Virus record (IMG/VR): IMGVR_UViG_3300028454_001166
Location: 34,758-98,757 of that record
Direction: 5' to 3' (one strand)
Source of the DNA: a virus
Lineage: Duplodnaviria; Caudoviricetes
Length of the DNA stretch: 64,000 nt
The translations under genes and the position numbers were made by a program. Below the pieces are notes generated by a model. That model had not been told where the DNA came from. It did no database searches and saw nothing but the letters and a program-made list of their open reading frames with translations. Shown here one piece after another: positions 1 to 44,467 of the stretch; the stretch's first letter is position 1; the number at the start of each line of letters is the position of its first letter.

Positions 1-1728
1 TTTACCGCGGGTCTGCATACCGGCGAGATCGATCATATTCCCGAGTTCAGCATCAAGTTCTCCCCGTTGTGGTCCATGACTGAATCCGAGCAGGTTGCGC
101 TTGATTTGCAGAAAGCTCAGGTTGAGTCCGCGCGTGCGCAGACGGCGTCCACATACATTCAAAATCAGGTTATCGATCCCGGCGAAGTCCGGAAGAGCCT
201 CGCGGAATCGGACGAGTTCGACATCGAGACGATGCTGGACGATTACACCGAGGAGGAACTTGAAGAGAACGCTCCAAAGGGCGAAGAGGGCGGGATGCCC
301 GGTGAAGGTGGTTTGCCCGGTATGCCTCCCATGGGTGGTGCGCCGGACGGTGGCGGTATGCTTCCCATGGGTGGTGATCCCGGGTCGGGGCAGGAGGCCC
401 CGGCACAGCCCGCACAGGCCGCTTCTGAGCCCGTTTCCGAGAGCGGGGAAGAAGGATACGCCCTGCAAGGAAACAGCCCTGAAACCGCCCCTGAAGCGAC
501 CAAGCTGCCTCAAGACCAGCTCGAGGAAGACCCGGATCATGAAGATGCGGAAAACATGGATGATGAGGACGAAGGGGCAGATAAAATCATATCTCGCCAC
601 GGCAAACCGGACTACGAGGCTCCGGTTCCCGCGGGAGAGGCTTCTTCATGGCTCGTCCAAGACCTCGACCCTCTCATGACGAACAACCCGGACACATCTT
701 CTCCCGATTGGACCGATGATGAGATCAAACGCAGAATCCGTTCTGTGGGTGTTCTGGTAGTTGATCAGTTCGGGAAGATCCTCACTGGTGTGCGTAAGGG
801 CGGAAGCGGTGAGAACTACGGACTGCTTGGCGGTCCCGGTGGCCACGTTGAGCCGGGGGAATCCCTCGAAGACGCGGCTATCCGTGAAACCTATGAGGAG
901 TTCGGGATCGTCCCGAAAGATCTGATGTTCATTTCCCTCGGTCGCTACGAAGAGGACAGTGGGATGATCCCTGCCATCTTTCTTTGCACGGAGTGGGCCG
1001 GAAGGATCTACCCGGTAGACGGGGAGATGGAGAATATCCGGTTCCGGACTATAGACGACATCGAAACACACAAGTTGTTCGGGCCGTTCGAATCTTCTCT
1101 GGAAATACTCGAAAAAGAGTTGACTTCCGAGGATGAAGATGGTAATATAGTGATGGATGAATTCGTGGAGAGCGACCATCCCAGAGATGAAGACGGACGG
1201 TTTTCCAAGAATTCCACATCCGGTGCTAAGAGCGCTTCACCAAGCGGCGGGAAGAGCTCGACGAAATATGCTGAAATTGACGATGATGATGAAGAATATA
1301 ATCCAGATCTTGATGGACCGGGGGAAGAGGCCAAACGAGAGAAAGAGCATGCAATAAGCTACTATAAAGCCGTTAGGCGTCGGCACGGTGATGTCAAGAA
1401 GATCGCAAGGAATACCGGATTTCCCGAGCAAGTGATCGATAGAATTCGTGAACATGTTTTCATGAAGAAGCACGATCTGGGAGACGATAAAATGAAACGC
1501 TTTTCCCCGGATTATGATATGGCACAGTCATGGCAGCGGTTAGTGAAGGGAAAAAACATTCAACCCCATGACGTCACCCTTTTGAAGCATGAACAAAAAG
1601 AGTACGAGCTGATGGATTCGGGACTATCTCAGGATAAAGCCCACGCGTTAGCGACCCGAGAATTTGATTATCAAGGAGAGGTGGAAAAATACAATGGTAA
1701 AAGTCAAAAACATAACAAAGACACCTGA
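1..1728 (+). CDS. Portal protein (DUF1073-type), 5' truncated, with C-terminal extension: acidic/Pro-Gly linker, Nudix hydrolase, HPRD motif, toxin-like tip
   Basis: Frame 1 is open from base 1. It contains IKFSPLWSMTESEQ (the F.PLW..E.E portal C-terminal motif), Nudix box GGHVEPGESLEDAAIRETYEEFG, MDEFVESDHPRDEDGRF and a tip with LLKHEQKE...AHALA. It lies upstream of MuF, protease and capsid genes. Confidence 0.8.
   Translation, partial: FTAGLHTGEIDHIPEFSIKFSPLWSMTESEQVALDLQKAQVESARAQTASTYIQNQVIDPGEVRKSLAESDEFDIETMLDDYTEEELEENAPKGEEGGMPGEGGLPGMPPMGGAPDGGGMLPMGGDPGSGQEAPAQPAQAASEPVSESGEEGYALQGNSPETAPEATKLPQDQLEEDPDHEDAENMDDEDEGADKIISRHGKPDYEAPVPAGEASSWLVQDLDPLMTNNPDTSSPDWTDDEIKRRIRSVGVLVVDQFGKILTGVRKGGSGENYGLLGGPGGHVEPGESLEDAAIRETYEEFGIVPKDLMFISLGRYEEDSGMIPAIFLCTEWAGRIYPVDGEMENIRFRTIDDIETHKLFGPFESSLEILEKELTSEDEDGNIVMDEFVESDHPRDEDGRFSKNSTSGAKSASPSGGKSSTKYAEIDDDDEEYNPDLDGPGEEAKREKEHAISYYKAVRRRHGDVKKIARNTGFPEQVIDRIREHVFMKKHDLGDDKMKRFSPDYDMAQSWQRLVKGKNIQPHDVTLLKHEQKEYELMDSGLSQDKAHALATREFDYQGEVEKYNGKSQKHNKDT
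1120..1148 (+). promoter_or_regulatory. SigmaA-type promoter embedded in portal CDS
   Basis: TTGACT (1120-1125), 17-nt spacer ending TGG, TAATAT (1143-1148); same design as 2156-2184 and 8294-8322. Confidence 0.65.
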
Positions 1729-1930
1729 TTTCATTTCTGGGGAAGCGTATGTTGAAGACTGTCCTACGGCCATTAAGATTTCCGTTGATTCCGAGGGCGG
1801 CATTCGCGCGGACCCGCTTCCCGAAGGGTACGATTGGTGTAAAAAACATCTTCGGTATGCGATTGGGGTTCTCCGACAAGCGCGTAAAATGGAGGATCCT
1901 CCTACCGAACGAACGATAATGTGGTATTGA
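1694..1930 (+). CDS. Small protein, candidate immunity to the portal toxin tip
   Basis: 78 aa (MVKVKNITKT...), overlaps the portal 3' end, followed directly by a terminator. Confidence 0.55.
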   Translation: MVKVKNITKTPDFISGEAYVEDCPTAIKISVDSEGGIRADPLPEGYDWCKKHLRYAIGVLRQARKMEDPPTERTIMWY

Positions 1931-1949
1931 TATAGCAGATCTGACAATG

Positions 1950-1977
1950 AAAAAAGGACGGGGGCCCGTCCTTTTTT
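1950..1977 (+). terminator. Intrinsic terminator
   Basis: AAAAAAGGACGG-GGGC-CCGTCC-TTTTTT. Confidence 0.8.
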
Positions 1978-1996
1978 CATGCCTTCGGAGGACATT

Positions 1997-2584
1997 GTGG
2001 GAAAAGTCGATGAATATATAAAGCGGAGGAGAATCCGGCTTCTTTCCCGGAACGGAGAAACACCTTCATTCTCAGATCGAGTAACGGCTTTCAAGGCCCG
2101 TCGCGCAGCTCGGCTCGACGTACGGAATAAAGAACTTGAAATGCTGAAAAATGGGTTGACTTTCTCCAAATATAATGGTAACATTGCAATGGATGAATTC
2201 GTGGAAGGCGACCATCCACGGGATGAGAACGGGCAATTCGCTAAAGCGAATAGCTCCGAGGCTTCAAGCGAGTCGGGAGCTGAAACGGTAAAACCGCAAC
2301 CCACGACCCCATCTGCAAAAGAGATCCGGTCCCGTTTGATCGGGCAAAAAACGCAGGACGGGCAAACGGTAAAGTCGGTGAGCGACCACGCAGTACAAAG
2401 GGTTCAGGAACGGAAGATCGGTTTTGATACAATCGAGAATTTGTTCCAATCCGGTAACGTTCGGCCCGGACACACACCGAACACGATTTGCTATGAAACC
2501 GATAAGCACAGAGTTGTTTTCGACAAAAACAACGGCAAAATAGTAACCGTGATGCACCGGGGCAATAGAGGAGGCAAGAAATAA
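1997..2584 (+). CDS. Putative head-cargo effector with two Arg-rich leaders, HPRD motif and C-terminal DUF4258/BECR-like RNase domain
   Basis: GTG start after GGAGG; YIKRRRIRLLSR and FKARRAARLDVR; GNIAMDEFVEGDHPRDENGQF; tip SDHAVQRVQERKI...VVFDKNNGKIVTV. Confidence 0.6.
   Translation: MGKVDEYIKRRRIRLLSRNGETPSFSDRVTAFKARRAARLDVRNKELEMLKNGLTFSKYNGNIAMDEFVEGDHPRDENGQFAKANSSEASSESGAETVKPQPTTPSAKEIRSRLIGQKTQDGQTVKSVSDHAVQRVQERKIGFDTIENLFQSGNVRPGHTPNTICYETDKHRVVFDKNNGKIVTVMHRGNRGGKK
2156..2184 (+). promoter_or_regulatory. SigmaA-type promoter embedded in effector CDS
   Basis: TTGACT (2156-2161), N17 ending TGG, TAACAT (2179-2184); a TATAAT also lies at 2171-2176. Confidence 0.65.
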
Positions 2585-2844
2585 TGGACACGAAGGGCTT
2601 TCTTGATCTGCTGAATCAAGAACAAAATGATTTCATCCTCGATGAGTTTTCCATGACGCAGGATCAGCTCCTCGGCCTTTCCGATGAAGGCCTCGACGAG
2701 CTCTACGAAGAGCTGGCAGACATTGAGGTTGAGGAGACGATGAAAGCCGAAGAAACGGGCGCAGCTCTTTCGGACAGAGGCCGGATTGCTTCTGAGATCG
2801 TCACTGTTTGGGGCAACGCCTACGCCGAGATAGACGAGGAGTGA
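2584..2844 (+). CDS. Small acidic protein, candidate immunity to the upstream RNase-like tip
   Basis: 86 aa, very acidic, TAATG overlap with the upstream gene, terminator follows. Confidence 0.6.
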   Translation: MDTKGFLDLLNQEQNDFILDEFSMTQDQLLGLSDEGLDELYEELADIEVEETMKAEETGAALSDRGRIASEIVTVWGNAYAEIDEE

Positions 2845-2864
2845 ACCCGAAAACAAAATACCTG

Positions 2865-2888
2865 AAGGACGGATCCCCGTCCTTTTTT
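2865..2888 (+). terminator. Intrinsic terminator, near copy of 1950-1977
   Basis: AAGGACGG-ATCC-CCGTCCTT-TTTT. Confidence 0.8.
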
Positions 2889-2938
2889 CGTGCCCATGTT
2901 TGAGAGCCGCGTAGGGGCTTATATGGAGGCGTTTTAAC

Positions 2939-3895
2939 GTGAACGAAAAGATACCCGCCCAACTGAAAAACGCGACTGACAAAGCCCCCACGAAGGTCAG
3001 AAGCCGCGTCCGGGCAAAAGGGACGCTCCTGTACCCGGATTCATCCGAACGGGAGTACGCTTCGCTGGCTTTGAAGCACGCCCGGATGTACGGCGACCTG
3101 TTAAAAGAATACCTGCCGGAGATCGAAACGATTCTCCGTGAAACCGCGAGGACGGATTCCAAGGATTACCACGATGATGCGAAAATCCTTGATTTCTCCG
3201 AGCGGTTTTCTCGTACCATCCGGAAGATGGAAAAAGAGCTGGCCGAAAAGCTGGACGATTTCGACACGGAGTACTTCATCAAGAAGGTGGCGAAACGGGC
3301 AAACGGGAGCAACACCCGCCAGTGGTTGCAGCTGATAAAGAAAACCTACGGGATCGATCTTGACGGTCACTACTACAACAAAGGAACGTGGGCGGATATG
3401 ATCGACAGATGGGCCGCGGAAAACGTCGGCTATGTGAAGTCAATTCCGCAGGATTCTCTGGCTACACTTCGCCAGATCGTCCAGAACGGGTACTACGACG
3501 GCTGGGGGGTCATTAAGACCCGGAACGAGATCATGAAGGCTTTCGGGGTTTCCAAGAAAAAAGCAAAGATGCTGGCCGCGGATCAAATGGGTTCCTTGTG
3601 TGCGCAAATAACCCGGAAGAAGCAAACGGACGCCGGGTGCAAACGGTATCGATGGAAAGCCCGAAACGACAACCGTGTTCGGGATGCGCACAGGCAGTAC
3701 AACGGGAAAATCTTCTCATGGGACAACCCGCCGCCCGCGTGGTACATGACCAAGACGAAGGGGAAGGTCTTCACCGGGAGGCATTGTCATCCCGGCGAGG
3801 ATTACTGTTGCCGGTGCATAGCGATACCGATCTTCGATTCGGACACGCTTCAACTGCCCGTGAAGAGCGGATACGAGGAGACCGGACAAACGTGA
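2939..3895 (+). CDS. Minor head morphogenesis protein (MuF / SPP1 gp7 family), no toxin extension
   Basis: YRWKARNDNRVRDAH...GKIFSWDNPP...HPGEDYCCRCIAIP is the Phage_Mu_F signature. Confidence 0.9.
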   Translation: MNEKIPAQLKNATDKAPTKVRSRVRAKGTLLYPDSSEREYASLALKHARMYGDLLKEYLPEIETILRETARTDSKDYHDDAKILDFSERFSRTIRKMEKELAEKLDDFDTEYFIKKVAKRANGSNTRQWLQLIKKTYGIDLDGHYYNKGTWADMIDRWAAENVGYVKSIPQDSLATLRQIVQNGYYDGWGVIKTRNEIMKAFGVSKKKAKMLAADQMGSLCAQITRKKQTDAGCKRYRWKARNDNRVRDAHRQYNGKIFSWDNPPPAWYMTKTKGKVFTGRHCHPGEDYCCRCIAIPIFDSDTLQLPVKSGYEETGQT

Positions 3896-3912
3896 GGAAG
3901 GGAGCAATTGGA

Positions 3913-4758
3913 ATGAATAAAGTACGCGCTTTCCAAGGGCGTCGATATAAGCGGCTCCTCGCAAGGATGGATGCCAACACTGACAAAGGAAAATGGATCA
4001 CAACCGAAAACAATCACAAAGTCCATCTGAACGAGAACGGACAACCAGATATGGGCAACCCTCACGTGATCGCTGCGATGGGTGGTAGCGAGTCCTCAGT
4101 ACAGGTAAGTGATCTCAGTAAGCGGGTTGAGGGACTTAAGAAGATGAAAAAGACCGAACGGCAACAGGAGCTTGCGAGTATTCTCGGTGATATGCCGGTG
4201 GGTTCTCAGATTACAGTTAAGAACCCGGGGCTTCCTGATCAAGTCATAACGAAAAAGGACGCGGAAACCTTCGAGCTTAAGACCACGATGTTTGGTGCAC
4301 CATCCGTTCACGATTCTTCACTCTTCGCATTGTCTCACGGTTTGTCTAATGATAAGAGCAATGCGTATTCGTTCGAAGGCTCCGGCACAATGCAATCTCA
4401 GGCGAAGGCGGAAAGTGGCGTTAATCCCAACGCTAAAACCCCCTCCAATGTATCATCTTCAAGTTCAAGTGGGGGTGGGTCTACAGTGCCCCCCGATGCA
4501 GATGCTCTTGCTAAGACAAAGGCTCAAAAAGCCGCTGAAAAAGCTAAGACTGCGGCCATGCTCAAAAAAGCACAAGCCGCGGTAGCTAAAAAAGAAAAGA
4601 TCTCACAGATTGATAAGGAAATCGAGCAGCTGGAACACGAGATGTATAAGGCCCAGCATTACGGGAATACCGAGATCGGGGATTGGGATCTGTCCCACGA
4701 ACTTGAAATGAAAATCCATAATCTTGAGGAGCAGAAAAAGAAGCTCACAGGGAAGTAA
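3913..4758 (+). CDS. Putative head-cargo protein (leader family), unknown C-terminus
   Basis: ATG 3913 after GGAG; FQGRRYKRLLARMD...GKWITTENNHKVHLNENGQPDMGNPHVI is paralogous to the N-termini at 4781 and 9646. Confidence 0.7.
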   Translation: MNKVRAFQGRRYKRLLARMDANTDKGKWITTENNHKVHLNENGQPDMGNPHVIAAMGGSESSVQVSDLSKRVEGLKKMKKTERQQELASILGDMPVGSQITVKNPGLPDQVITKKDAETFELKTTMFGAPSVHDSSLFALSHGLSNDKSNAYSFEGSGTMQSQAKAESGVNPNAKTPSNVSSSSSSGGGSTVPPDADALAKTKAQKAAEKAKTAAMLKKAQAAVAKKEKISQIDKEIEQLEHEMYKAQHYGNTEIGDWDLSHELEMKIHNLEEQKKKLTGK

Positions 4759-4780
4759 AAGTTAAAGCGAGGCATTTTTG

Positions 4781-7700
4781 ATGAATAAAACGGATGCGTA
4801 CCGTAACCGCCGGTATAAGCGGCTTCTCGCAAGAATGGATGAAGTGGATGGCCATTTCGACGACGAGGGGCATTGGGTCACAACCCACGAAACGAAACGG
4901 CACATACACATAAACGAGAACGGGGTTCCTGATAAGGGCAACCCCTATATTATTGCCAAGATGACCGGGACGAAACCGAAACTCAGCGGCGAATACCGGA
5001 AAAAATCGCTGCAGGAGAGTTTCGGTAAAGGGAATACCGGTAAGGCAGTGCATTCGTTGAAGAGCCTTCCCGAAGGATCGACGATCAAGATGGCAAACGG
5101 AACGGAGTACACAAAGACCGGAAGCGGCTTTGTCAGTTCCAAGAGTAAAACGGGTGGTAAACAGACCCCGCAAGCTCTGGCGAAAATCCTTGATGGTCAT
5201 ACGAAGGCCGGTAAGAACTTCGAGGTCAATCCTTCCGACATTGGCGGGGCTGTCGAAGCGGGGAAAAACACGGGAGCCCCGAAGCCCGGACAGGGTGCTG
5301 AGTCCGAGGCTCCGAGTGCTTCTACGTCAGAATCGGTGCCGGAAACCGCATCAGCATCGTCCCCGGAGATCGATGCGCTTAACACGGTAATCGATCAATG
5401 GGGCGCGGGCAATCAGGTCCCCGCAGTAACCACATTGCAAGCTCTCACGGGTTTAGAAGACGGGACGAAAATCTTAGTTGACGGGTTTACCTTTGAAAAG
5501 CAGTCTGAAATCAGCGCGCTTGGGGCAGGGAAGGTCACTTCCTTTAAGAACACGGACACGGGCGAGGTCTTTAGTAAGGGTACGTTTAAGGCAATCCTGA
5601 AAAGCTATGCAGAGGAAGGTCAGCACGATATAGAGGTGCAAGCGCCCGGTCAATCGACGCCCGCCTCGGCTGAGGCCGCACCTGCTCCGGATGAGGTGGC
5701 CCCGGTTGAAACGGCTTCGACTTCTCCTGAAGTAACCAAATTCAACGACATTCTTTCAGGGTGGGCTGGCCACTACAGCGATGGGACACTTACAGAGGAC
5801 GATATTGCCGCCGCAAATGCTTTGAAGGATGGCACGATTATCTCCGTTAACGGAAAAGATACCTACAAAAAGGTTACCGAACACTCCATGTACGGCGACT
5901 ATCCGTGGTTTGAAAACTTAGAAACCGGGAAATGGTCGAATGTACCCGCGCTGAAAAAAATCGTGGGCGGGGATGACGTACAGGCTGTACAGGTGAAAGA
6001 TCCCGCAAATGATACAACAGTTTCTGCGCCAGCTTCTGAACAAGAGCCTACGCCGACGTCGAGTGCCGAGCCTTCTGCCGAGCAACCGAGTTCTTCTTCC
6101 GGTGGTAAGACGATGAAGGACCTGACAGAGTCCTTGAAAAAGTATCCCCCGACCATGGAGGGGGCGAATAAGTTCTGGAATGAAGTCAATAGCACCTTCG
6201 ATAACGCCCCTGACGGAACTGAGATAACCTTTCCTGATGAAGACGATGGAAAATGGATCAAGGAAACCCACGGGAGCCTGACGCAATGGGTAAACCTCGC
6301 TTCCGGCGATACGATGGATAACAGTGAGATGTCGGCGGCTTTCTTGGATTCCGACTTTGGCAAGGATCTCGATAACATTTCTGCCGGAATAACCTATAAA
6401 GAACCTACCGGCGCGGGGACGCCGGGTTCAAGCTCGAGCGGTTCAAGTGGTTTAGCCTCGCAGGATTATTCGGGCCAAAAAGAAGCCCTTAGCGATCTGA
6501 TCAAAAACGTGCCCGATGCGAGCATTGCCGCCTATGAAACGGTGTTGGATGAATTCCCAGAGGGCACCATCATCAAGGTTGGCGGAAAAACGTATGAAAA
6601 AATTCCGTCCGGGGATTGGGGTGATCCAGATACAGGGTTGCCGCTTGGCGAGTCTTGGGATGTGGGCTACGAGCTGAAGCACTATAACCCTCAACACACC
6701 TTAGACATTTCGATACCCGGAGAAAACACCGCCGCGTCTTCCACCGGCAATGCGAATACACCTACTACGAGTTCTGACCCGGCGCAGTATTCGGCGTCTC
6801 TTTCAGGGGTAAAAAGCGCTGTAGATAAACTGAAACAAGGGAAATTCGTCCATCCGGCAGAGTTCAAAAAGGCGTGTAAGTCAATGAAAGACGGCGATGG
6901 AATCGTCACGAACGGAAAAACCTATATCAAGGGTACAGATTCGTCCGGAAATCCGGTGTTCCACCCTTCTGATTCCCCACAGCACACTTACAGTTCTACC
7001 GGCATGGTGGACATCATGGCATACCAGATCGGTTTGCAAAAAGCCGGTCTCTCAAACGGGGTTTCGTTCAAATCCGGATCGGATCAATCCAGCTCAGGAA
7101 GTACAGCCGGTGCTTCACCCAGCACGGCAGCTCCCACGGCAACACCGAGCGTGGCCGCAAAAGACACGCAGAAATCAATCAAAAATGCTAAGACCAAAGC
7201 CGCCGTCGCTTCGGCTCTGGACGCGCTTCCCGTGGGAACGAAGATCCACATGAAGAACCAAGGGGAAACCGTGTTCACAAAAACGGAGCACGGTTTCTCA
7301 AAAGAGTCTAAGTTCTGGGGCGGGACCATTCACACCCTTACCGATGACGTGGTGAAATATGTTCACGGGAAGAATAAATACGCCGCGCCCTTTGCTATCG
7401 AAGATACTTCTGGCGGAACAACCGATTTCTCGGACGGTTCAAGCTATAAAGCCCCGGCGCATTCGTCTACCGCGTCTTTGCAAAGCCAGTCTTCCTCCTC
7501 CGCCTCGTCCGCTTCATCTTCCGCATCAAGCCCGAAACCGAGTGCTTGGAACGGGCTAAAAGCAAAAGTCCAACATGCCGCCGAAGCGTTCACCCAAGCC
7601 CGGAAGAACGCGGCCCATTGGGATAAAGGGGGCGGAATGGCAACCGATAAACTGCTGAGACCGGTTACAGGAGCAGTATGGAAAAAACTAACTGAGGGGC

Positions 7701-8266
7701 AGAAGAAGAGTCTGGTTGCCTATACCGGGAGCGCTTATGCGAGCATAAATGACGCATTGAGAAACGGAACCGGTAAACGAGCTGCAGACATAAACAACAT
7801 GACAACGGCTATCGATCAGTGCGAAGCGCCCACCGATATATGGCTTCAGAGAGGATGTTCGACATACGCATTGAGTAAGCTGTTCAACACCGATACGATG
7901 ACCCTTGAAAAAGCGCGTTCAAAAGGATCCCAAGCTATTCTTGACCTTTTGTCCACCTCGGCAAACTACGGTCAGGATAAGGGTTTCATGTCATGCGGGT
8001 CTTCGAAAGGGAAGGGCTTTTCCTCTAACGATGTGATTTTGAACGTGTACTGTCCGAAAGGCACGAAGATGATGTATGCGGAACCGTTCTCCCACTATGG
8101 CGCGACAAGTGCCGGAGCTACGTGGAACGGCTCGTCTGGTACAACTCATGTTTCAGGCGAACACGAAACAATCCTGCAAAGGGGGACAATGCTCCGTCCC
8201 ACAAAGGTCACGGTGTCTAACGGTAAGATATACGTGGATGTAGACGTAATCGGTCAAAACTACTAA
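4781..8266 (+). CDS. Large putative head-cargo protein with internal repeats and C-terminal VIP2/Alt-like ADP-ribosyltransferase
   Basis: Leader YRNRRYKRLLARMD; C-terminal YTGSAYASINDALR, WLQRG, GFMSCG and EHETILQRG give the R-S-ExE ART motifs. Confidence 0.8.
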   Translation: MNKTDAYRNRRYKRLLARMDEVDGHFDDEGHWVTTHETKRHIHINENGVPDKGNPYIIAKMTGTKPKLSGEYRKKSLQESFGKGNTGKAVHSLKSLPEGSTIKMANGTEYTKTGSGFVSSKSKTGGKQTPQALAKILDGHTKAGKNFEVNPSDIGGAVEAGKNTGAPKPGQGAESEAPSASTSESVPETASASSPEIDALNTVIDQWGAGNQVPAVTTLQALTGLEDGTKILVDGFTFEKQSEISALGAGKVTSFKNTDTGEVFSKGTFKAILKSYAEEGQHDIEVQAPGQSTPASAEAAPAPDEVAPVETASTSPEVTKFNDILSGWAGHYSDGTLTEDDIAAANALKDGTIISVNGKDTYKKVTEHSMYGDYPWFENLETGKWSNVPALKKIVGGDDVQAVQVKDPANDTTVSAPASEQEPTPTSSAEPSAEQPSSSSGGKTMKDLTESLKKYPPTMEGANKFWNEVNSTFDNAPDGTEITFPDEDDGKWIKETHGSLTQWVNLASGDTMDNSEMSAAFLDSDFGKDLDNISAGITYKEPTGAGTPGSSSSGSSGLASQDYSGQKEALSDLIKNVPDASIAAYETVLDEFPEGTIIKVGGKTYEKIPSGDWGDPDTGLPLGESWDVGYELKHYNPQHTLDISIPGENTAASSTGNANTPTTSSDPAQYSASLSGVKSAVDKLKQGKFVHPAEFKKACKSMKDGDGIVTNGKTYIKGTDSSGNPVFHPSDSPQHTYSSTGMVDIMAYQIGLQKAGLSNGVSFKSGSDQSSSGSTAGASPSTAAPTATPSVAAKDTQKSIKNAKTKAAVASALDALPVGTKIHMKNQGETVFTKTEHGFSKESKFWGGTIHTLTDDVVKYVHGKNKYAAPFAIEDTSGGTTDFSDGSSYKAPAHSSTASLQSQSSSSASSASSSASSPKPSAWNGLKAKVQHAAEAFTQARKNAAHWDKGGGMATDKLLRPVTGAVWKKLTEGQKKSLVAYTGSAYASINDALRNGTGKRAADINNMTTAIDQCEAPTDIWLQRGCSTYALSKLFNTDTMTLEKARSKGSQAILDLLSTSANYGQDKGFMSCGSSKGKGFSSNDVILNVYCPKGTKMMYAEPFSHYGATSAGATWNGSSGTTHVSGEHETILQRGTMLRPTKVTVSNGKIYVDVDVIGQNY

Positions 8267-8293
8267 CCTCGAAATTAAACCGGTTATTACTGC

Positions 8294-8322
8294 TTGACTT
8301 TTTTCATGCTTTATGGTAATAT
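8294..8322 (+). promoter_or_regulatory. SigmaA-type promoter for the 8354/8654 gene pair
   Basis: TTGACT-N14-TGG-TAATAT, intergenic. Confidence 0.75.
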
Positions 8323-8353
8323 GGGTTTACCTAATATGAGGGGGTAACATTTC

Positions 8354-8608
8354 ATGGCGAAAGAAGGAAAGATGAAGCCTCGTGATTGGGATGAGGGATT
8401 CGGTGATAACGCTGAACACGGCGCGGAAGAAACGCCTTGCACCGATTGCGTTTTTCGTCGAATTGTCACAAGCGCAGATGGTAGGGTGATAGATACCGGA
8501 AAAGGATCTACCTGCAAGGCCTATCCCGAGCTCAAACCGCTCGAGGTGATGATGTATGGGGCCGAGTGCCCGAAATATCAGAAGGATAAACACGAAAAGA
8601 ACCTCTGA
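8354..8608 (+). CDS. Small Cys-rich protein, candidate ART partner/immunity
   Basis: 84 aa; PCTDC...CKAYP...ECPKY; lies between the ART and the ADP-ribosylglycohydrolase. Confidence 0.55.
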   Translation: MAKEGKMKPRDWDEGFGDNAEHGAEETPCTDCVFRRIVTSADGRVIDTGKGSTCKAYPELKPLEVMMYGAECPKYQKDKHEKNL

Positions 8609-8653
8609 GGCAAAGAGGATACCGAAAATGAACCCAAACAGGGAGGCAAACGC

Positions 8654-9574
8654 ATGATAGGAGCCATCATCGGTGACATCGTCGGCTCGGTCTACGAGTT
8701 CGACAATCATCGATCAAAGATTTTTCCGCTTTTTGATTCTCGCTGTGCGCTGACAGACGACAGCATAATGACGCTGGCCATCGCAAGAGCGCTCACGATC
8801 TACGGGCAGCAGGGGACGTATGAAAACCTGCAATCTGAGACGATCCGGCAGATGCAGAGGGTCGGTCGATGCTACCCCGATTGCGGTTGGGGCGGGCGTT
8901 TCGGAAGGTGGATCTTCTCAGACGATCCGAAGCCATACAACAGCTTCGGGAATGGCGCGGCTATGCGGGTCAGCGCGATTGTCGCCGCGGCTCCAAACCT
9001 CGAAACGGCGAAGCTGTGGACGAAGCTGGTAACCGAGATTTCGCACAACCACCCGGAAGGGATCAAAGGCGCACTTGCGACGGTTGAGCTTGCGTGGATA
9101 GCAAAAGAGGCCAGAAAACGCACGAATCCAAAATGCAAAGATCGCATTTTCAAAGCCGCTTTGAAATACTACCCGGAAAAAGACTTCGCCGGAGATTTCA
9201 ACCTTGATGCGATCCGCCCCAAATACCGATTCAACGAAACCTGCCAAGAGACGGTTCCGCAAGCCATCGAAGCGTTCCTTGAATCGAGAGATTTTGAGGA
9301 CGCTATTCGAAATGCGATCTCAATCGGCGGGGACAGCGACACGTTAGCCGCAATTACAGGGACTATCGCCGAGGCCTTCTACGGGGTGAAGCAGGAGCAT
9401 AAAGCAAAAGCGCTCAAATACTTCGACAGCCTCCAATACGGAATCTACAGTGAGTTTTCAGCTATGTACAACGATCTGCCCGTATTCGGAGAGCTGTCCG
9501 GAGAAATCGCATTCCGAACAACCGAAGACGGATCCATCGGCGGGATTTCTACGATGGGAGACGTCATTGGGTAA
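8654..9574 (+). CDS. ADP-ribosylglycohydrolase (DraG/ARH family)
   Basis: MIGAIIGDIVGS, TDD, SFGNGAAMR, SHNHPEG and GGDSDT motifs. Confidence 0.92.
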   Translation: MIGAIIGDIVGSVYEFDNHRSKIFPLFDSRCALTDDSIMTLAIARALTIYGQQGTYENLQSETIRQMQRVGRCYPDCGWGGRFGRWIFSDDPKPYNSFGNGAAMRVSAIVAAAPNLETAKLWTKLVTEISHNHPEGIKGALATVELAWIAKEARKRTNPKCKDRIFKAALKYYPEKDFAGDFNLDAIRPKYRFNETCQETVPQAIEAFLESRDFEDAIRNAISIGGDSDTLAAITGTIAEAFYGVKQEHKAKALKYFDSLQYGIYSEFSAMYNDLPVFGELSGEIAFRTTEDGSIGGISTMGDVIG

Positions 9575-9593
9575 TCCCGCGAACTGAATACCG

Positions 9594-9618
9594 AAGACGC
9601 AGAAATGCGTCTTTTCTT
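9594..9618 (+). terminator. Intrinsic terminator
   Basis: AAGACGCA-GAAA-TGCGTCTT-TTCTT. Confidence 0.75.
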
Positions 9619-9645
9619 ATTTCCCCGTTGAAAGGAGGGGTCGGC

Positions 9646-11313
9646 ATAAAAGGCAACAACATAAGTCGTTTCAAACAGCGACGCGCTGAACGTCTAATAC
9701 AAAGAGCGTTTAATGCGGATGCCCGTTTTGACGAGGACAAGGGAAAATGGGTGACGACCCACGAAAAGAAGCGTCGAATCCACATAAACGAAAACGGAAT
9801 CCCGGATAAAGGGAACCCCTTTGTCATAGCCAAGATGACCGGGTCTAAGCCCAAGGTCAGCACTGGCTACAAAAAGAAGAATCTTCACGATCTTCTTGTA
9901 AAGGGCAAATCCGACAAAGCTGTAAAAGCTCTGAAAGCCTTGGAAGAAGGTTCCACTATCACGCTGGAAAACGGCACACAGTACACGAAGACGGGGAGCG
10001 GCTTTGTCAGCTCGAAGGGAAAAACTGGCGGCAAACAAACCCCGCAAGCCATAGCGAAGATCCTCCATGGTCACTCCGGAGGCGGGAAGGACTTTACGGT
10101 TGGTGATCCCAAACCCGATGCAGTTCCCGAGGCAAAAGCGCCTAAAACGTCAACCGTCCCAACCTACCCGAAGACATACAGCAAGGGTCAGCTTGGCGCG
10201 TCCCATAGTTCTCATATGGGAGACGATCCGGTAGACATTCCGAAAGGTCCGCCTAAAACCTATAAATCCGACTCCGGCCACGAATTCGTGGACGCGGGTA
10301 ATATTCTATCAAGCGTCAAATCAACCGATACGACGAAAGACATCATCGAGAAGCAGGGATTCAGCGGTTTGCCTCGACGGGTATCAAAAGAGGAATTTCA
10401 AAAGATTGCAAAACAGAGTGGTTTCGTTTCGAAGCGAACATATAGCGCGGCCTCTCAGGAGCTCGCAGACGAATATCGAAAACAGCTCTACGAAGGGGAC
10501 TTTTTCGTGGACTGCACCGTAGGCGGTGCACAATACGGGCAAGGAATGTATTGTGCCGCCGATTACACCGGCAACGGATACAACGCGGGCATCGACGAAG
10601 AGATGAAGCACTACCAAAAATTGAATGTCGCGCGGCAAGCAGATAACGCTTTCATCTTAGGGGCTTCAACCGAAGATCTGAACAAGGCCATAGACGAGTG
10701 TAAGGCCGCGGGTAAGTACAGCTGGAACGGAATGGGTTACAAGCACATGACCCCTGCCGAGCATGAGGCGTTTAAGAAGTTTGTAACGCATCAGAAGCTC
10801 AGCCCAAAAGAAGAAGAGGCCATGGCAAAGCACGGCGGTTTTTCGGATGTTCAGTTCGTGCTGTCCACTGATGTCGGGTGGAGCAACTATGGAACGGTTT
10901 CCGTAGGAAGCACTAAGAGCGCTACCAAGAACAAGTTCCTCTCGACATATAAGGGGTACAAAAAGACCGAAGTGGTCACGTTGGACCCGAGCGCGAAGAT
11001 TATTAGTTTCAATGCTCTAAAGGCGAAATACAAGGCCTATAAAGGTACGAAACCGAAAGATCTGGGTGCCTTCGCCGCGGCTATGGGCTACGATGCGATC
11101 AACGCCTACGGCCATGGTAAATCCGGGTCCTACACCGTTATTCTCAACCGGACAAAATGTGTATTTATGGATCGGCCTATCAATGGCGACTCGGTAGATG
11201 AGCCGAAGGAATCCCGTATCAAGTTCATCCCCGGCAAGCATGGCCGGTTCCACGCATATCGGGACGGTCAATATCTGGGGTGGGTGGACACCTACGTCGG
11301 CGGTCAGAACTGA
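9646..11313 (+). CDS. Putative head-cargo protein, N-terminus paralogous to 4781, C-terminal PARP-like ADP-ribosyltransferase candidate
   Basis: Leader FKQRRAERLIQR; about 130 aa closely similar to the 4781 N-terminus; tip QGFSGLP...YGQGMY...GYDAI...YTVILNR. Start is uncertain (ATA 9646 after a strong SD, or TTG 9628). Confidence 0.6.
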   Translation: MKGNNISRFKQRRAERLIQRAFNADARFDEDKGKWVTTHEKKRRIHINENGIPDKGNPFVIAKMTGSKPKVSTGYKKKNLHDLLVKGKSDKAVKALKALEEGSTITLENGTQYTKTGSGFVSSKGKTGGKQTPQAIAKILHGHSGGGKDFTVGDPKPDAVPEAKAPKTSTVPTYPKTYSKGQLGASHSSHMGDDPVDIPKGPPKTYKSDSGHEFVDAGNILSSVKSTDTTKDIIEKQGFSGLPRRVSKEEFQKIAKQSGFVSKRTYSAASQELADEYRKQLYEGDFFVDCTVGGAQYGQGMYCAADYTGNGYNAGIDEEMKHYQKLNVARQADNAFILGASTEDLNKAIDECKAAGKYSWNGMGYKHMTPAEHEAFKKFVTHQKLSPKEEEAMAKHGGFSDVQFVLSTDVGWSNYGTVSVGSTKSATKNKFLSTYKGYKKTEVVTLDPSAKIISFNALKAKYKAYKGTKPKDLGAFAAAMGYDAINAYGHGKSGSYTVILNRTKCVFMDRPINGDSVDEPKESRIKFIPGKHGRFHAYRDGQYLGWVDTYVGGQN

Positions 11314-11344
11314 TAGAATCGCCTCTTCCGATGAAAAATAAAAT

Positions 11345-11364
11345 GCGCGGAAACGCGCTTTTTT
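11345..11364 (+). terminator. Possible terminator
   Basis: GCGCG-GAAA-CGCGC-TTTTTT. Confidence 0.6.
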
Positions 11365-11391
11365 AGTTCCTCACGATAGGAGGCGTTTCCG

Positions 11392-11559
11392 TTGAAAGAA
11401 TACATTCGTGTTTTCATTCGTTTCAAAGAAGGGAGAACCGTGTGCATCTGCATGAGGGACAACCCGAAATGCAAGAAGCACTGCATCCCAGAACTGGTAG
11501 AGCGGGACAAGATGAGAGATTGGCAAGAGGCCTTCAAGGTCAATAAATACGGAAAGTAA
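11392..11559 (+). CDS. 55-aa Cys-containing hypothetical protein (below the ORF-track cutoff)
   Basis: AGGAGG then TTG; MKEYIRVFIRFKEGRTVCICMRDNPKCKKHC... Confidence 0.5.
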   Translation: MKEYIRVFIRFKEGRTVCICMRDNPKCKKHCIPELVERDKMRDWQEAFKVNKYGK

Positions 11560-11653
11560 AGCGGGGTATATCGCATATGAAACGCGTCGTAAAATCGGTT
11601 CACGATCCGCCCATCGAAAGCTATTATTTTGACGGCAAAGAAAGAGAAGGGAG

Positions 11654-11992
11654 GTGGTACGGATGCCGGAGAAAGAAATGAGCGTCATTGAAACCATCTG
11701 CCAGCAGATGATTAAGTCTGCGGGGGATGTCATCGCGCTCGAGCAGGTTATATCTCGGCTGGAAGACCACAATAACGATAAGGTGTTGGAGCTGTTTGAA
11801 CACCTGCAAATCTCCAATCTGGAAGCCCTGCAAACCTTGACAGTCGCCTTAACGGGTGAAATGCTGGAATCCCGGAAGACCGAAAACGATGATTCGGATG
11901 ATGGCGGCGTCTTTGCGCCGGGGGAGCTCGATTGGAAAAAGAAAGCCGAGGTGATCGGCCACGGTGAAACGGAGGAAGAAGCCGATGAATAA
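11654..11992 (+). CDS. Hypothetical head-region protein
   Basis: GGGAGGT SD; overlaps the protease gene start. Confidence 0.55.
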   Translation: MVRMPEKEMSVIETICQQMIKSAGDVIALEQVISRLEDHNNDKVLELFEHLQISNLEALQTLTVALTGEMLESRKTENDDSDDGGVFAPGELDWKKKAEVIGHGETEEEADE

Positions 11993-13826
11993 GACCATGC
12001 CTAAGCTGGTTCACGTCACACGGCTTGACAGTTTCCCCGTAACCCGTGCAACGTACACGGATGAAGGTTATCTGTCCGACCGACCGATTCTGACGTCAAC
12101 CGGAATCTTCGAGTACAAAAACAAAGATGGCTCGATCAGACGGGAGCTGAGGCTCCCGGAGGAAGTTTTTGACCCTGAAAGTCTTGAATCCTATAAAGGG
12201 AAGCCCATCGTGATAACACACGATGCCGGGCTTATTAACCGTGACAATGTTCAGGAAAATCAGATAGGGACGATCCTCAGCGCCGGTGAGCGCGACGGGG
12301 ATGATGTTCGGGCTGACATCATGATTCATGATACAAAGGCCCTGAAAAACTGTCGATTCAAGGAACTGTCGCTCGGTTACAACCTCGACCTTGAAGAGGA
12401 ACCGGGAGAATGGGAAGGGCAGAAATATGATGCCATCCAGCGGAACATCCGCGTGAACCATCTTGCCGTTGTCAGGGAGGCAAGGGCGGGAGATCAGGCG
12501 CGGCTGAACATAGATAGCCGTTCCGATAACACAATCTTAACAGGAGGACATAGGACTATGGCCAAGAAGAAGACCCGCCGTAAATACAACAACGACGGCA
12601 TCCTCAGCCCTGAACAGCTGCAGGAAGCAATCGCAAAGTATAAGGCGGAACAGGCGGCGCTTGCCGCTGAAAATCAGGACGAAGATCCTGATGAAGAGGC
12701 CGAGGAACTCGCAAAGACCGAGGTTGTAAACCCCGAGGCCGATGTGCAGAAGAATGAGCTGAACAAGGATACGGACAAGCCGGTTCCTGCTCCGCAGAAT
12801 ACCGCGCCGCAGGTGCTCCCCCCGAAGAAGCCCGTGGCTCCGAGCATCCCGCTCCCGAGTCAGGACAGGCCCATTGAGGAGAAGCTCGACGCGGTGAAGC
12901 ACAGACGCGATCTCCGCGACGAGAAGGGTGACCCCAAGGACCTTAATGAGGCCATGGAAAGCATCGCTGAATACGACGAGGAGCACGATTATTATCGTGA
13001 CATCATCGACACCCTTCTCGCTGAACGTGACTTCGAAAAGGGTAAGAAGGCCGACTCTGCGCAGGAGCCCATCCCCGACACCGAGACCGCTGAAATCGGT
13101 GACAAGGGCAAGGAGAAAGACGAGGACTGTGTGGACAACAAGCTCGACTCCGAAGACGCTGACACCCCCTTCACCGATGAAGAAGAGGTAAAGGAAGACG
13201 ACGAGGAAGACACCGACCCGTTTGGTGACGAGGACTTCGCTGACGAAGATCTCACCGAAAACGAGGGTGAGGAAGAGGATCCGGCTTTTGCCGATTCTGA
13301 CCTCGGCGACCCGGACTCCGCTGATCCCGATAACGAGGACGACGATGACGAAGAGGCACTTCCCGACTACGATCTCACCGATCCCGACATCGACGATGCA
13401 GATGAGGAGGAGGAATCCTACCCGCGTCTGAATCAGGATTCTATCGACCGGGCTGTTCGGAAAGAAGTGCAAAGACGGCTCGCCATCGCCAAGGTAGGCC
13501 AGCGGCTCAACATGGACGGTCTGGAAACCATGAGCCTCCGCAAAGCGAAGCGCATGGTCATTAAGAAGGTTTATCCTTCTGTCCGGCTCGACGGTAAGAG
13601 TGACGCCTACATCAACGGTATGTACAACTGCTGCGTAAAAGAGCTGAAGAAACACCCCCGGAAGGATACCGCCTACCAGAAGCGGCAGATGTTCAATAAG
13701 GTGTTCAACAAGGACTCTCAGGACTTCGATAACACCGATTCCGCGGCAACCGCGCGTGACAAGATGATCGAACGGCAGCTGGATCGCAAGCCGGAACGTC
13801 ATAGCGTTCGTGCGGAAAAGAAATAA
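11985..13826 (+). CDS. Prohead protease (DUF2213-type) fused to acidic scaffold
   Basis: TDEGYL...TGIFEY...ELRLPEEVF...GKPIVITH...ELSLGY...QRNIRVNHLAVVREARAG; long acidic C-terminal half; internal SD+ATG at 12558. Confidence 0.88.
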   Translation: MNKTMPKLVHVTRLDSFPVTRATYTDEGYLSDRPILTSTGIFEYKNKDGSIRRELRLPEEVFDPESLESYKGKPIVITHDAGLINRDNVQENQIGTILSAGERDGDDVRADIMIHDTKALKNCRFKELSLGYNLDLEEEPGEWEGQKYDAIQRNIRVNHLAVVREARAGDQARLNIDSRSDNTILTGGHRTMAKKKTRRKYNNDGILSPEQLQEAIAKYKAEQAALAAENQDEDPDEEAEELAKTEVVNPEADVQKNELNKDTDKPVPAPQNTAPQVLPPKKPVAPSIPLPSQDRPIEEKLDAVKHRRDLRDEKGDPKDLNEAMESIAEYDEEHDYYRDIIDTLLAERDFEKGKKADSAQEPIPDTETAEIGDKGKEKDEDCVDNKLDSEDADTPFTDEEEVKEDDEEDTDPFGDEDFADEDLTENEGEEEDPAFADSDLGDPDSADPDNEDDDDEEALPDYDLTDPDIDDADEEEESYPRLNQDSIDRAVRKEVQRRLAIAKVGQRLNMDGLETMSLRKAKRMVIKKVYPSVRLDGKSDAYINGMYNCCVKELKKHPRKDTAYQKRQMFNKVFNKDSQDFDNTDSAATARDKMIERQLDRKPERHSVRAEKK

Positions 13827-13849
13827 TCACACTCACAGGAGGAAACAAA

Positions 13850-14341
13850 ATGCAGACTGCTTATAAGTACTTCGCAGGTAGGGGCATCGCGGGCGGCCTC
13901 GTGGATCTCGCTCCCTACGCAATCGACAGCTTCATCAATGAGGAAGAGAACGGTGTTCTGAAGCCGGGTCTCGCCGCGATGTCCGGCACGAACGCCGGAA
14001 CCCAGATCAAGCTCTACACCGGCGCTGACGCCACCTTCGAGGGCGTTATCAACAACAACCGGAACACCGAGTACGATCTTGACGGCCACCTCCGGATTCT
14101 GAAAGGCGCGGGCGTCGGTGTGGTCCGTTGGGGCCGCGTTTACGTTCGTGTGGCCGAAGGTGTAGAAGTGGCCTACGACGATCCGCTGTATGTCGTGAAG
14201 ACCGGCGACGAAACCGGTTTCTTCACTAACACCGCTGGCACGGCTGGCAGTGAAACCGGTGTCGCCGTCAGGGGTCGTTTCCTTGGCCCGGTGGAGAACG
14301 GCATCGCCCCCGTCGAACTGTTCAATCAGGCCGACGCCTAA
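13850..14341 (+). CDS. Capsid decoration/cement protein
   Basis: Position between protease-scaffold and major capsid; WGRVYVRV; Gly/Ala-rich. Confidence 0.7.
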   Translation: MQTAYKYFAGRGIAGGLVDLAPYAIDSFINEEENGVLKPGLAAMSGTNAGTQIKLYTGADATFEGVINNNRNTEYDLDGHLRILKGAGVGVVRWGRVYVRVAEGVEVAYDDPLYVVKTGDETGFFTNTAGTAGSETGVAVRGRFLGPVENGIAPVELFNQADA

Positions 14342-38200: not shown

Positions 38201-38240
38201 CTACGCCAGCTTCGGCTCCCGCCTCCTTTATATCCCTTAA
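32256..38240 (+). CDS. Large tail/receptor-binding protein, DGR target (LamG-like, LRR-like and Listeria-Bacteroides-like repeats, C-terminal CLec-like variable domain)
   Basis: 1994 aa; YTFVGW..TA..DVYA.Y repeats; C-terminus LYVGGS...FGSRL contains the VR. Confidence 0.85.
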   Translation: MYFKKLKINGIEYEMETHIVGEEDPTSETEGNLGQFYYNSNTGIFWKCTYSEDGVYSWEEFSTTAFDEVTMDEETRLLHFLKNGEDVVDPVYIAGGGGGSGGGSGNNAVLTVTNMTGWLAHTISTGADCYLSIDWSSLENEMETGAGILTIRVNNVVKRTLDISQGTVRINLKDILATGSNKVKLTVTDVYENTKSITFTIKSVDLRLASSFSTVSEFTEGEAVVFTYTPYGSVSKTTHFEVDGADAGTQVVTASGRQQSYTLPAMAHGAHSLKVWFTAEIDGEEVSSNVLWFDMIVVGDSTAPIISTSFRTSEAVQYETLYIKYRVYTPNSLTSVVSLYSGNTKITDLTVDRTEQTWTYRCDGYGELNLSIRSGTAVVNFVIDVEQSDIDTEPEADSLALHLSSYGRSNNEEHPEVWKDEEHNISCQLTGFSYVANGWVADKDGNTVLRVSGNARVTIPYKPFERDFRTTGKTLEFEFATRDVLDYDAVLVSCMNGNRGFELTSQRATLKSERSEISTQYKEDEHVRISFVAEKRTESRLIYVYINGIMSGVVEYPEDDDFSQQSPVNITIGANTCTTDLYNIRVYDNNLTRFQIVSNWIADTQNITEMLARYEHNNVYDEYGNVVISKLPKDLPYMIIEAEELPQYKGDKKTVSVEYTDPVTPGRSFTATGCQANVQGTSSAPYARKNYDMQFKAGFVLADKSSAENYELAPGIIPFNRFVLKADVASSESANNVELVKLFCEADPYKRPEELSNAKVRKGIYGFPIVLFWRNPADGSEQFMGKYNFNLPKRAPGPYGYSGDMESWEFQNNTSNLMLFLSDYFSEAPQADPSTGEVKAAWRYDYEARFPSDEWVDYSKLQEFQSFVFSTYRAGATGNDLETPVTYQETHTVYDEVVDPETGAVDYVERLVTEDVTYTKDTAEYRLSRFHHEFGKYAEVDSFLFYYIFTELFLMVDSRAKNLFIGFSGGPTSGLTHLDRKAVAEPYDMDTAIGTNNEGSLVFDYGLEDTDHLAGGADVFNGQNSVLWCNLRDAFSREIAQMYQSLRSAGVLSYATVSARFTDHQAKWPEAIFNDDAQFKYLDPLVNPDPGKEPTAVYLPMLQGSKAEQRKWWLYNRFRYMDSKWNAGDALTDVIQLRGYAKADITVTPYADIYPTIKYGSVPVQARGKHGVPQTLACPLDNVNDTEIYIYSASQLASVGDLSGLKVGFADFSKATKLQSIKVGSDEAGYTNQNLTGLSVGTNPLLGSVDARNCTALVGTVDLSGAANVETVLLEGTAVTGVALPNGGILKTLHLPGTVTNLTVRNQPGITSFVMPDYENITTLRVENSPGIPVEDILAEIPENSRVRILGFVSEMTTVEEVDAFYARLDTMRGLDESGGNVDTAVVAGKITGLDTITGAWLADKLSKYPNIEIEYQHITSSLRYYNYDGSTLITTETITDGGDGTYSGTPSRSSTAQYSYTFVGWNRNKNATAKDSSATKAVTADRDVYAAYTATVRTYTITWKNSNGTVLETDNNVPYGSTPRYNGSTPQNPDSSGGAFRGWTPTVTTVTGNTTYTASYVPKYDVKFYNGSTLLQTVSVLEGGTAVYTGETPVDAGGAEFLGWAASAGQHSADANILKNITANKSVYAAFKSPIEVPTATTAEGAYGVEWNYGATATTLTRKGLAASFGNPVPADSLTGSGSSPFDTVAPWKDMKRYNVIDGAVSYSQDDAGYSETDYDTVVYIPEFYYTAYKDTADSKWLWAISPTPLEGFVKHPGSGRYIGRFHTSGSSSGVFSKSGAAPLANTTRANFRMYSHNKGEKWRQLDLAAWSALQMLYLVEFANFYSQSTLGTGYDTGSVGTMGETGEAAYHTLKRSKAHNMYRWIEDPFSNVLDWCDGFVASSRAAYTSIDYGSYKDTTTGMDKTGITLPSSNYISGFGYSAEAPYAFIPDKASGAETTYVTDRVYSNTGTCVLYVGGSCNANADYGFFCFGAYLSASNTYASFGSRLLYIP
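38091..38228 (+). repeat. DGR variable repeat (VR)
   Basis: 138-bp ungapped match to 38403-38540 with 15 mismatches, 14 of them opposite TR adenines. Confidence 0.95.
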
Positions 38241-44390: not shown

Positions 44391-44419
44391 TTGACTGGTT
44401 AAAGAAAGTATGCTAATAT
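44391..44419 (+). promoter_or_regulatory. SigmaA promoter of the early/middle operon
   Basis: TTGACT-N14-TGC-TAATAT; GTTAAAGAA repeated in the spacer and just downstream. Confidence 0.75.
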
Positions 44420-44467
44420 GAAGCCAGTTAAAGAACTTTAGCGGATTTCCGCGATAGGAGGTTTACC

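Follow-up and report, generated by a model that had tools for sequence, protein, structure and literature searches.

Temperate phages of the Firmicutes encode MuF polymorphic toxins, in which a virion-internal carrier ends in a swappable C-terminal toxin and is accompanied by small immunity genes (Jamet et al. 2017, PMC5576092), and capsid-packaged fusions of portal or MuF proteins to effectors are also found among the polyvalent proteins (Iyer et al. 2017, PMC5512222). In the Bxa/BAH/Bsi system, which combines an ADP-ribosyltransferase, an ADP-ribosylglycohydrolase and a small gene, both immunity roles (BAH and Bsi) were shown experimentally, and the same paper asks directly how a lysogen stays immune when toxin and immunity genes lie in a silent late operon (PMC11699363). 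The transcription of immunity genes is described in none of these three studies: the word "promoter" is absent from Jamet 2017, is used in the Bxa paper only for expression vectors and, like the term "HPR", is absent from Iyer et al. 2017. Here we analyze a 64,000-nucleotide stretch (the window) of a virus of the class Caudoviricetes, positions 34,758 to 98,757 of IMG/VR record IMGVR_UViG_3300028454_001166, with three promoter-like sites (P1, P2 and P3), two of which lie inside the coding sequence of virion proteins that end in candidate toxins. Our reading, to which we assign a probability of roughly 0.6, is that P1 to P3 would function as extended -10 promoters for the sigma-A of the host, from which the lysogen would make antidote transcripts free of toxin.

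The principle itself is known from other systems. Phage morons, which are classical in lambdoid phages, are promoter-gene-terminator units inside late operons (e.g., in lambda and HK97), and nuclease colicins and orphan contact-dependent inhibition (CDI)/Rhs modules have internal immunity promoters. [quoted passage not shown] We found no description of such promoters for phage cargo toxins. The locus resembles morons in having, between the portal and the scaffold/capsid genes, three units with a sigma-70-type promoter and an intrinsic terminator, for which expression from the prophage would be expected, and the third unit (P3, a small gene, an ADP-ribosylglycohydrolase gene and terminator T3) is by its layout a textbook moron. 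It differs from them in that P1 and P2 lie in frame inside the preceding structural gene and would give a toxin-coding but untranslated leader, only P3 being intergenic. With the T6SS, colicin and CDI/Rhs systems it shares a promoter inside effector coding sequence and a predicted expression of immunity that is independent of the effector. In contrast to these systems, however, the effectors here are phage capsid cargo, and the promoter is tied to a peptide tag (the HPRD tag, see below), overlaps the toxin start signals and is conserved in a portable cassette.

Several properties of the MuF toxins, among which Apk2 is also said to belong, are found here too. The C-terminal domain of the first unit (tip 1) is polymorphic and common to several carriers, MuF proteins among them, and the element, which is integrated and has a large serine recombinase at its left end, is for that reason an integrated temperate phage. 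The carriers, however, are a portal-Nudix protein and an Arg-rich leader, and the MuF protein of the window bears no toxin, so that there is no MuF fusion. A small gene adjoining the tip recurs in relatives and is a candidate for a neutralizing role. As for the Bxa system, its set of ADP-ribosyltransferase, small gene and ADP-ribosylglycohydrolase is present in the third unit, where the glycohydrolase is analogous to BAH and an 84-residue gene in the place of Bsi is a candidate for the small blocking protein. As for the polyvalent proteins, the HPRD tag is found between the domains of such proteins, but the association with a promoter is limited to cassettes from Clostridia.

The three sites had been predicted from the letters of the sequence, and a pattern scan of the window finds TTGACT-N14-TGG-TAAYAT, without mismatch, at precisely these places (Table 1). 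A fourth copy, with one mismatch (TGC for TGG), lies at 44391-44419. When up to two mismatches are allowed, 0.15 matches are expected in the window, and four were reached in 0 of 100 shuffles. The -35 element of P1 to P3 agrees with the sigma-A/sigma-70 hexamer TTGACA at five positions out of six, the spacer is 17 nt long (N14 plus TGG), and TGn directly precedes the -10 element, as in extended -10 promoters. The -10 hexamers themselves (TAATAT, TAACAT and TAATAT) fit TAnnnT, with A2 and T6 kept, and have the same form as those of the intergenic promoters of the phage.

P1 and P2 do lie inside coding sequence, as originally claimed, P1 in the frame of the portal-Nudix open reading frame (ORF) and P2 in that of the ORF starting at 1997 or 1979; both are read L-T-x5-G-N-I and end 4 nt 5' of the in-frame ATG of MDEFVExDHPRD. 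They belong to a direct repeat within which both hexamers and the TGG are identical between the two copies, whereas only 5 of the 14 spacer bases are. The T at -15 is kept despite an Asp/Asn difference, and the codons employed are TTG, which accounts for 13% of the Leu codons in the window, and GGT (21% of the Gly codons). A weak promoter-like site over the start of the 78-residue gene (1668-1695, score 9/12) was rejected, the whole scan being at chance with 8 sites found and 8.2 expected.

Table 1. Coordinates of the promoters, cassette parts and genes of the locus (positions in the window).
Feature	Position	Strand	Description
5' cassette arm	1099..1196 (copy 2 at 2135-2232)	+	promoter + HPRD tag; 98-nt direct repeat, 73% identical
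P1	1120..1148	+	-35 TTGACT 1120-1125, 14-nt spacer, TGG, -10 TAATAT 1143-1148; inside portal-Nudix-tip ORF
P2	2156..2184	+	TTGACT-N14-TGG-TAACAT; inside cargo protein 2
P3	8294..8322	+	intergenic, directly 3' of the stop codon of the ADP-ribosyltransferase gene
Fourth promoter, same type	44391..44442	+	operator-like palindrome just 3'; contrast case
Portal protein C-terminal half + Nudix domain + tip	1..1728	+	ORF
Tip 1	1153..1728	+	HPRD tag 1153-1203, Ser/Gly/acidic linker, ~137-aa C-terminal domain ending the portal ORF
78-aa gene	1694..1930	+	candidate immunity protein 1; overlaps end of tip 1; GAGGTG 10 nt before ATG
Terminator T1	1947..1980	+	-22.3 kcal/mol, z -4.3, then U run
Cargo protein 2	1997..2584	+	Arg-rich leader, junction, HPRD tag, DUF4258 tip (tip 2 from 2189)
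86-aa acidic gene	2584..2844	+	candidate immunity protein 2; AGGAGG 9 nt before ATG; ATG overlaps tip 2 stop
Terminator T2	2864..2890	+	-13.8 kcal/mol, z -3.6, then U run
MuF gene	2939-3895		318 aa, PF04233, no C-terminal extension
1161-aa cargo protein	4781..8266	+	Arg-rich leader, repeats, C-terminal ADP-ribosyltransferase (PF03496, residues 967-1152, E 1.7e-17)
84-aa Cys-containing gene	8354..8608	+	possible non-enzymatic immunity protein
ADP-ribosylglycohydrolase	8654..9574	+	PF03747, E 2.5e-29; enzymatic immunity candidate
Terminator T3	9593..9622	+	-13.0 kcal/mol, z -5.0, then U run
Further cargo protein	9628-11313		ORF

The prophage to which the window belongs is integrated in C45, a contig of 543 kb in a 4.3-Mb genome. 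The GC content is 52.5% in the window, versus 59.6% for the genome. In the 150 kb around the element, the pattern (up to two mismatches) has nine copies, all of them on the transcribed + strand and none on the - strand; seven of the nine lie between genes and are followed, 30-50 nt 3', by a ribosome site and an ATG. Genome-wide, 13 sites match with at most one mismatch, six of them inside the phage. P1 to P3 are the prophage's own promoter type. Three promoters of the phage have the palindrome GTTAAAGAACTTTAAC just 3' of the -10 element, with half-sites in two spacers. One is that at window position 44391 (palindrome at 44427-44442), and the other two are on C45, at 241900 (palindrome at 241936) and, 5' of a VapE-like gene, at 258147 (palindrome at 258186). 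Elsewhere in the genome, only a second copy about 100 nt 3' of the 241900 site (C45:242041) and one match with two mismatches on contig C12 were found, and the same genome search placed the palindrome at none of P1, P2 and P3. The palindrome probably serves the early promoters as their repressor operator, and we infer from its distribution that P1 to P3 would be constitutive; since they are devoid of the early-promoter operator, they should be on in the lysogen. Two other operator-less promoters of this type are found at C45:266107-268340 (12108-14341 of locus L003), with a third further 3' at L003 14608. They precede a 169-residue gene of no assigned function and an Amidoligase_2/GGACT gene pair, just 5' of the terminase genes, and these genes are further candidates for expression in the lysogen.

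How these promoters might work can be proposed from the layout of the units. Units 1 and 2 would each be a cassette that runs from the promoter through HPRD tag, linker, toxin tip and small immunity gene to the terminator. Its in-frame fusion to a virion carrier (the portal-Nudix protein in unit 1, an Arg-rich leader in unit 2) would be the reason why the promoter is translated, as part of the linker. Transcription usually starts about 7 nt after the -10 element (in a range of 5-9 nt), and the seventh base here, where the RNA would begin, is the G of the junction ATG, preceded by T. With such a start the transcript would lack a start signal for the tip, whose sequence would become an untranslated leader, and translation would take place only at the small gene, from its own strong ribosome site, before the message ends at the terminator. 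The junction ATGs (1153 and 2189) have no ribosome site and every in-frame internal start in the tips is weak, whereas GAGGTG and AGGAGG are found at the small genes of units 1 and 2, and GGAGG at the glycohydrolase gene. P3 would have the same role from its intergenic position, serving the two genes 3' of the ADP-ribosyltransferase, the 84-residue gene and that of the ADP-ribosylglycohydrolase. In this way the lysogen would be protected both from cargo toxins that appear at induction and from those that sibling virions inject, while toxin synthesis itself would be confined to the late message, by late read-through. From the sequence features, the cassette layout and the comparative constraint presented here, we predict the start sites, the activity of the promoters in the lysogen, the immunity function and the late read-through.

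Each unit closes with a stable hairpin, at 1947-1980, 2864-2885 and 9593-9614, followed by a U run, as intrinsic terminators do (z between -3.6 and -5.0), and T1 and T2 have in common a 30-nt stretch, 87% identical, which is the shared 3' arm of units 1 and 2. Folding energies and this repeat bear out the terminators and the common T1/T2 stem of the original prediction. Its notion of "immunity-only" units stands for what would be translated but not for what would be transcribed, since units 1 and 2 would also transcribe the tip-coding sequence.

A profile of the two junctions in the window retrieved the tag, [DE][FW]xEx[DE]HPRDxxG[KRQ]F, in 174 representative proteins. Most of these are large polyvalent proteins from many phyla, in which the tag lies between domains and occurs up to eight times per protein. 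In the window the tags are encoded at 1153-1203 and 2189-2239, and the -10 elements of P1 and P2 end 28 nt before the His codon of the tag. The papers retrieved by a full-text literature search with the HPRD string were all unrelated, and we found no description of the tag, which might mark sites of cleavage, packaging or recombination. The upstream L-T...G-N-I part is shared, among the tag proteins, only by P0001-P0004, P0004 reading G-I-M there.

Three relatives were found by protein similarity alone. In Faecalibacterium phage FP_Brigit, a portal-Nudix-tag fusion (37% identical) has at its junction TTGACA-N14-TGC-TAAGAT, read G-L-T...A-K-M, followed by a tip, two small genes and a terminator. 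Two metagenome-assembled genomes (MAGs) of Oscillospirales have TTGCCC-17-TATAAT, read A-I-I (G086), and TATAAT in a different frame, read R-Y-N (G125). In all three, the -10 element ends 28-33 nt before the His codon. Other searches were less productive: a megablast of positions 1-12000 against the phage collection gave no match, the 201-residue form of cargo protein 2 was found among 61 relatives only in its own genome and had in the protein collection a single relative (P0001, 94%), and neither junction-peptide pattern scans of viral, metagenome and genome collections nor a related-loci search with the portal C terminus returned true relatives.

For unbiased scans, tag sites were collected and their upstream DNA was scored for a promoter, with thresholds of at least 9, 10 and 12. 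Among 90 non-redundant tag sites from IMG/VR, three score at least 10 (0.2 expected) and two at least 12 (0.008 expected). The Clostridia tags of GTDB are far richer, with a score of at least 9 for 19 of 28 (per-window background 0.022) and of at least 12 for 12 of 28 (background 0.0014), and two more Clostridia sites (L148 and L183) show by eye the same arrangement just outside the scoring window. In other phyla of GTDB, a promoter-like site was found at 0 of 96 tags, which rules out the promoter as a general property of the HPRD tag. On these counts, the tag is a protein motif, and the promoter is a DNA signal of the Clostridia cassettes rather than a property of the tag.

The original prediction held that, if the sites are promoters, homologues should be constrained at the DNA level, and this is what is seen: the -35/-10 pair is kept at the same distance from the tag, with different residues and once in another frame, in FP_Brigit and the two Oscillospirales MAGs, and such a site is present at 19/28 Clostridia tags versus 0/96 elsewhere. 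Across 22 non-redundant promoter-bearing junctions, the peptide encoded at the -10 element is DIM, YTM, ATM, GII, DII, CII, AKM, VNM, GNI, SII, AII or GRV; with GNI, GII, DII, AKM and YTM, the DNA nevertheless stays TAnnAT. The residue before the -10 element varies as well (D, G, C, A, V or S), yet the third base of its codon is T, except at three CATAAT sites where it is C, and the first Ile at the -10 element is always encoded by ATA.

Relatives have, 3' of the tag, a tip of 100-250 residues, a small ORF of 53-117 residues that touches or overlaps the stop codon of the tip, and a terminator usually within ~100 nt. Units 1 and 2 of the window match this layout and have common 5' (98 nt) and 3' (30 nt) arms. 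Cassettes are found in two settings, either fused behind large carriers (portal, 530-700 residues upstream) or stand-alone, in which case the ribosome site lies in the promoter spacer and the start codon is inside the -10 element or 4 nt after it. Over 21 lineages, a start codon at the junction is absent in nine, inside the -10 element in about five, abutting it in one and 4 nt after it in six (once as TTG). The most likely reading of these arrangements, and a point that goes beyond the original prediction, is that promoter plus tag form the 5' boundary of a portable cassette; the promoter would be inside coding sequence because this boundary has been joined in frame behind carriers. We see about even odds for a broader proposition, in which phages of Clostridia share a portable toxin-immunity cassette with a doubly coded 5' boundary, where the promoter either forms the carrier-toxin linker or overlaps the ribosome site and start of the toxin. 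The transcript would then be toxin-free by construction, lysogen immunity would travel with HPRD-tag recombination, and the needs of the promoter would have shaped the protein (L-T, x-I-I and G-N-I). A contig of a Eubacteriales MAG, CAKROZ010000008.1, holds at least six promoter-tag-tip cassettes in 24 kb (16-40 kb; L243, L220 and L242), the majority of which have TTGACA-17-TATAAT, with the ribosome site placed in the spacer.

Other explanations have to be weighed against toxin-free transcripts. The RNA could start at the A of the junction ATG (1153 and 2189) and be a leaderless message for toxin and antidote, so that free tip and antidote are both made in the lysogen, as in a toxin-antitoxin or exclusion module. 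A start codon exactly 4 nt after the -10 element is indeed present at both window sites and in four stand-alone relatives, and several proteins with the tag begin close to it. The A, however, is the fifth base after the -10 element, upstream of the usual start range of sigma-70, and the position is not conserved, since of the 21 lineages nine have no in-frame start there, about five have it inside the -10 element, one has it abutting and one uses TTG. The ribosome site within the spacer of the stand-alone cassettes is, moreover, sensible only for translation from a longer upstream transcript. We therefore consider the leaderless message improbable overall, and the originally predicted immunity without effector is favored over it, the junction ATG being absent in 9/21 lineages and without a ribosome site while the small genes have strong ones; at the window sites themselves, a leaderless start keeps some likelihood.

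Slightly less probable still is that the promoters are real but mainly lytic, raising transcription of the cassettes or restarting it after each terminator rather than protecting the lysogen. Early lytic genes, that of the VapE-like primase among them, are driven by promoters of this form, and constitutive promoters would fire during infection too. The early promoters, however, carry the operator that P1 to P3 lack, a terminator closes each unit ahead of the next head gene, which keeps these promoters from feeding the head operon, and the transcripts of P1 and P2 have no start signals for the tips. We give equally little credence to the sites being non-functional by-products, left by the conservation either of a peptide (L-T...G-I/N-I) or of an arm for recombination at the boundary of the cassette. 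That the tag is a widespread protein-level motif, that the window copies lie in a repeat usable as a recombination arm, with a second common arm at the terminators, and that a G-I-I-K peptide recurs in one subgroup would all fit. But the peptide that precedes the tag varies (GNI, GII, DII, CII, AKM, YTM, VNM and GRV), one site is in another frame, the T in the third base of a variable codon and the ATA for Ile are kept, tags outside Clostridia have no site, and in the stand-alone cassettes the -35 element lies upstream of the start codon.

Toxin-free antidote transcripts from P1 to P3 remain the reading that we favor, and a number of points weigh against it. The -10 hexamers match the consensus at only four of six positions, so that the promoters would rely on the TG extension and the 5/6 -35 element, and the fifth-base A is compatible with a leaderless start in this window. 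P1 and P2 are paralogous, as their repeat shows, and count as one event within the window. The Clostridia cassettes may also share ancestry, in which case the counts overstate independent events, and the low conservation of flanks and spacer in the information profile is partly circular since the sites were chosen by score. We found no start-site or expression data for this locus or any related one. On the protein side, tip 1 has no recognizable toxin fold (the best Foldseek hit against the PDB has an E value of 0.6, and a PDB sequence search was empty), and tip 2 barely reaches the DUF4258 cut-off, with 25.1 bits versus 25. Two of the candidate immunity proteins are without homologues: the 78-residue protein has no Pfam match either, and the 84-residue protein has no family match and no homologue in 400 genomes of the order, so that unit 3 cannot be compared across relatives.

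As for the proteins of the locus, the C-terminal domain of tip 1 is 40-54% identical to the C termini of Clostridia MuF (PF04233) and minor-capsid-2 (PF06152) proteins and is also found at the C termini of Streptococcus and Clostridioides difficile phage proteins. Its model (1315-1725) is all-helical and confident, with a predicted local distance difference test score (pLDDT) of 88.7, and H92, E93, E96 and H110 are invariant. The domain is widespread at the C termini of MuF, minor-capsid and portal proteins. Cargo protein 2 has a GTG start at 1997 with GGAGG 5 nt 5' of it, whereas the alternative ATG at 1979 (201 residues instead of 196) has no ribosome site. The second of the two cargo proteins after the MuF gene is the one that ends in the ADP-ribosyltransferase.

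Four cargo proteins have a common Arg-rich N-terminal leader, [FY]xxRRxxRLLxR (encoded at 1997-2060, 3913-3975, 4781-4845 and ~9650-9720), which is a candidate capsid-targeting signal independent of MuF, and three of them also have a following KWxTTxxxxxxHxNENGxPDxGNP block. A 55-residue Cys-containing ORF (11392-11559), with a TTG start and AGGAGG, matches, with 49% identity, a portion of the ORF that lies just 5' of the MuF gene in another IMG/VR contig (L080); it is a conserved small head-module gene, of a kind missed by short-ORF cut-offs. Farther along, a 347-residue protein (46636-47679) combines HTH_3, sigma-70 region 4 and the C-terminal domain of the RNA polymerase alpha subunit in an unusual fusion and could be a phage transcription or antitermination factor. 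A reverse transcriptase gene (RVT_1, 38660-39739) directly follows a 1994-residue tail-fibre-like ORF (32256-38240) and may be a diversity-generating retroelement.

A conserved promoter whose RNA cannot yield toxin would be a concrete and testable answer to the question of how lysogens stay immune to the cargo toxins of their own prophage. It would also explain the odd conserved residues of the linker, as translated promoter hexamers, and would make the locus a clean case of DNA-level regulatory constraint on protein sequence. Promoter plus HPRD tag may serve as a DNA signature for annotating toxin-immunity cassettes in gut Clostridia prophages. If our reading is true, a cassette that lands by HPRD-tag recombination would bring lysogen immunity along.

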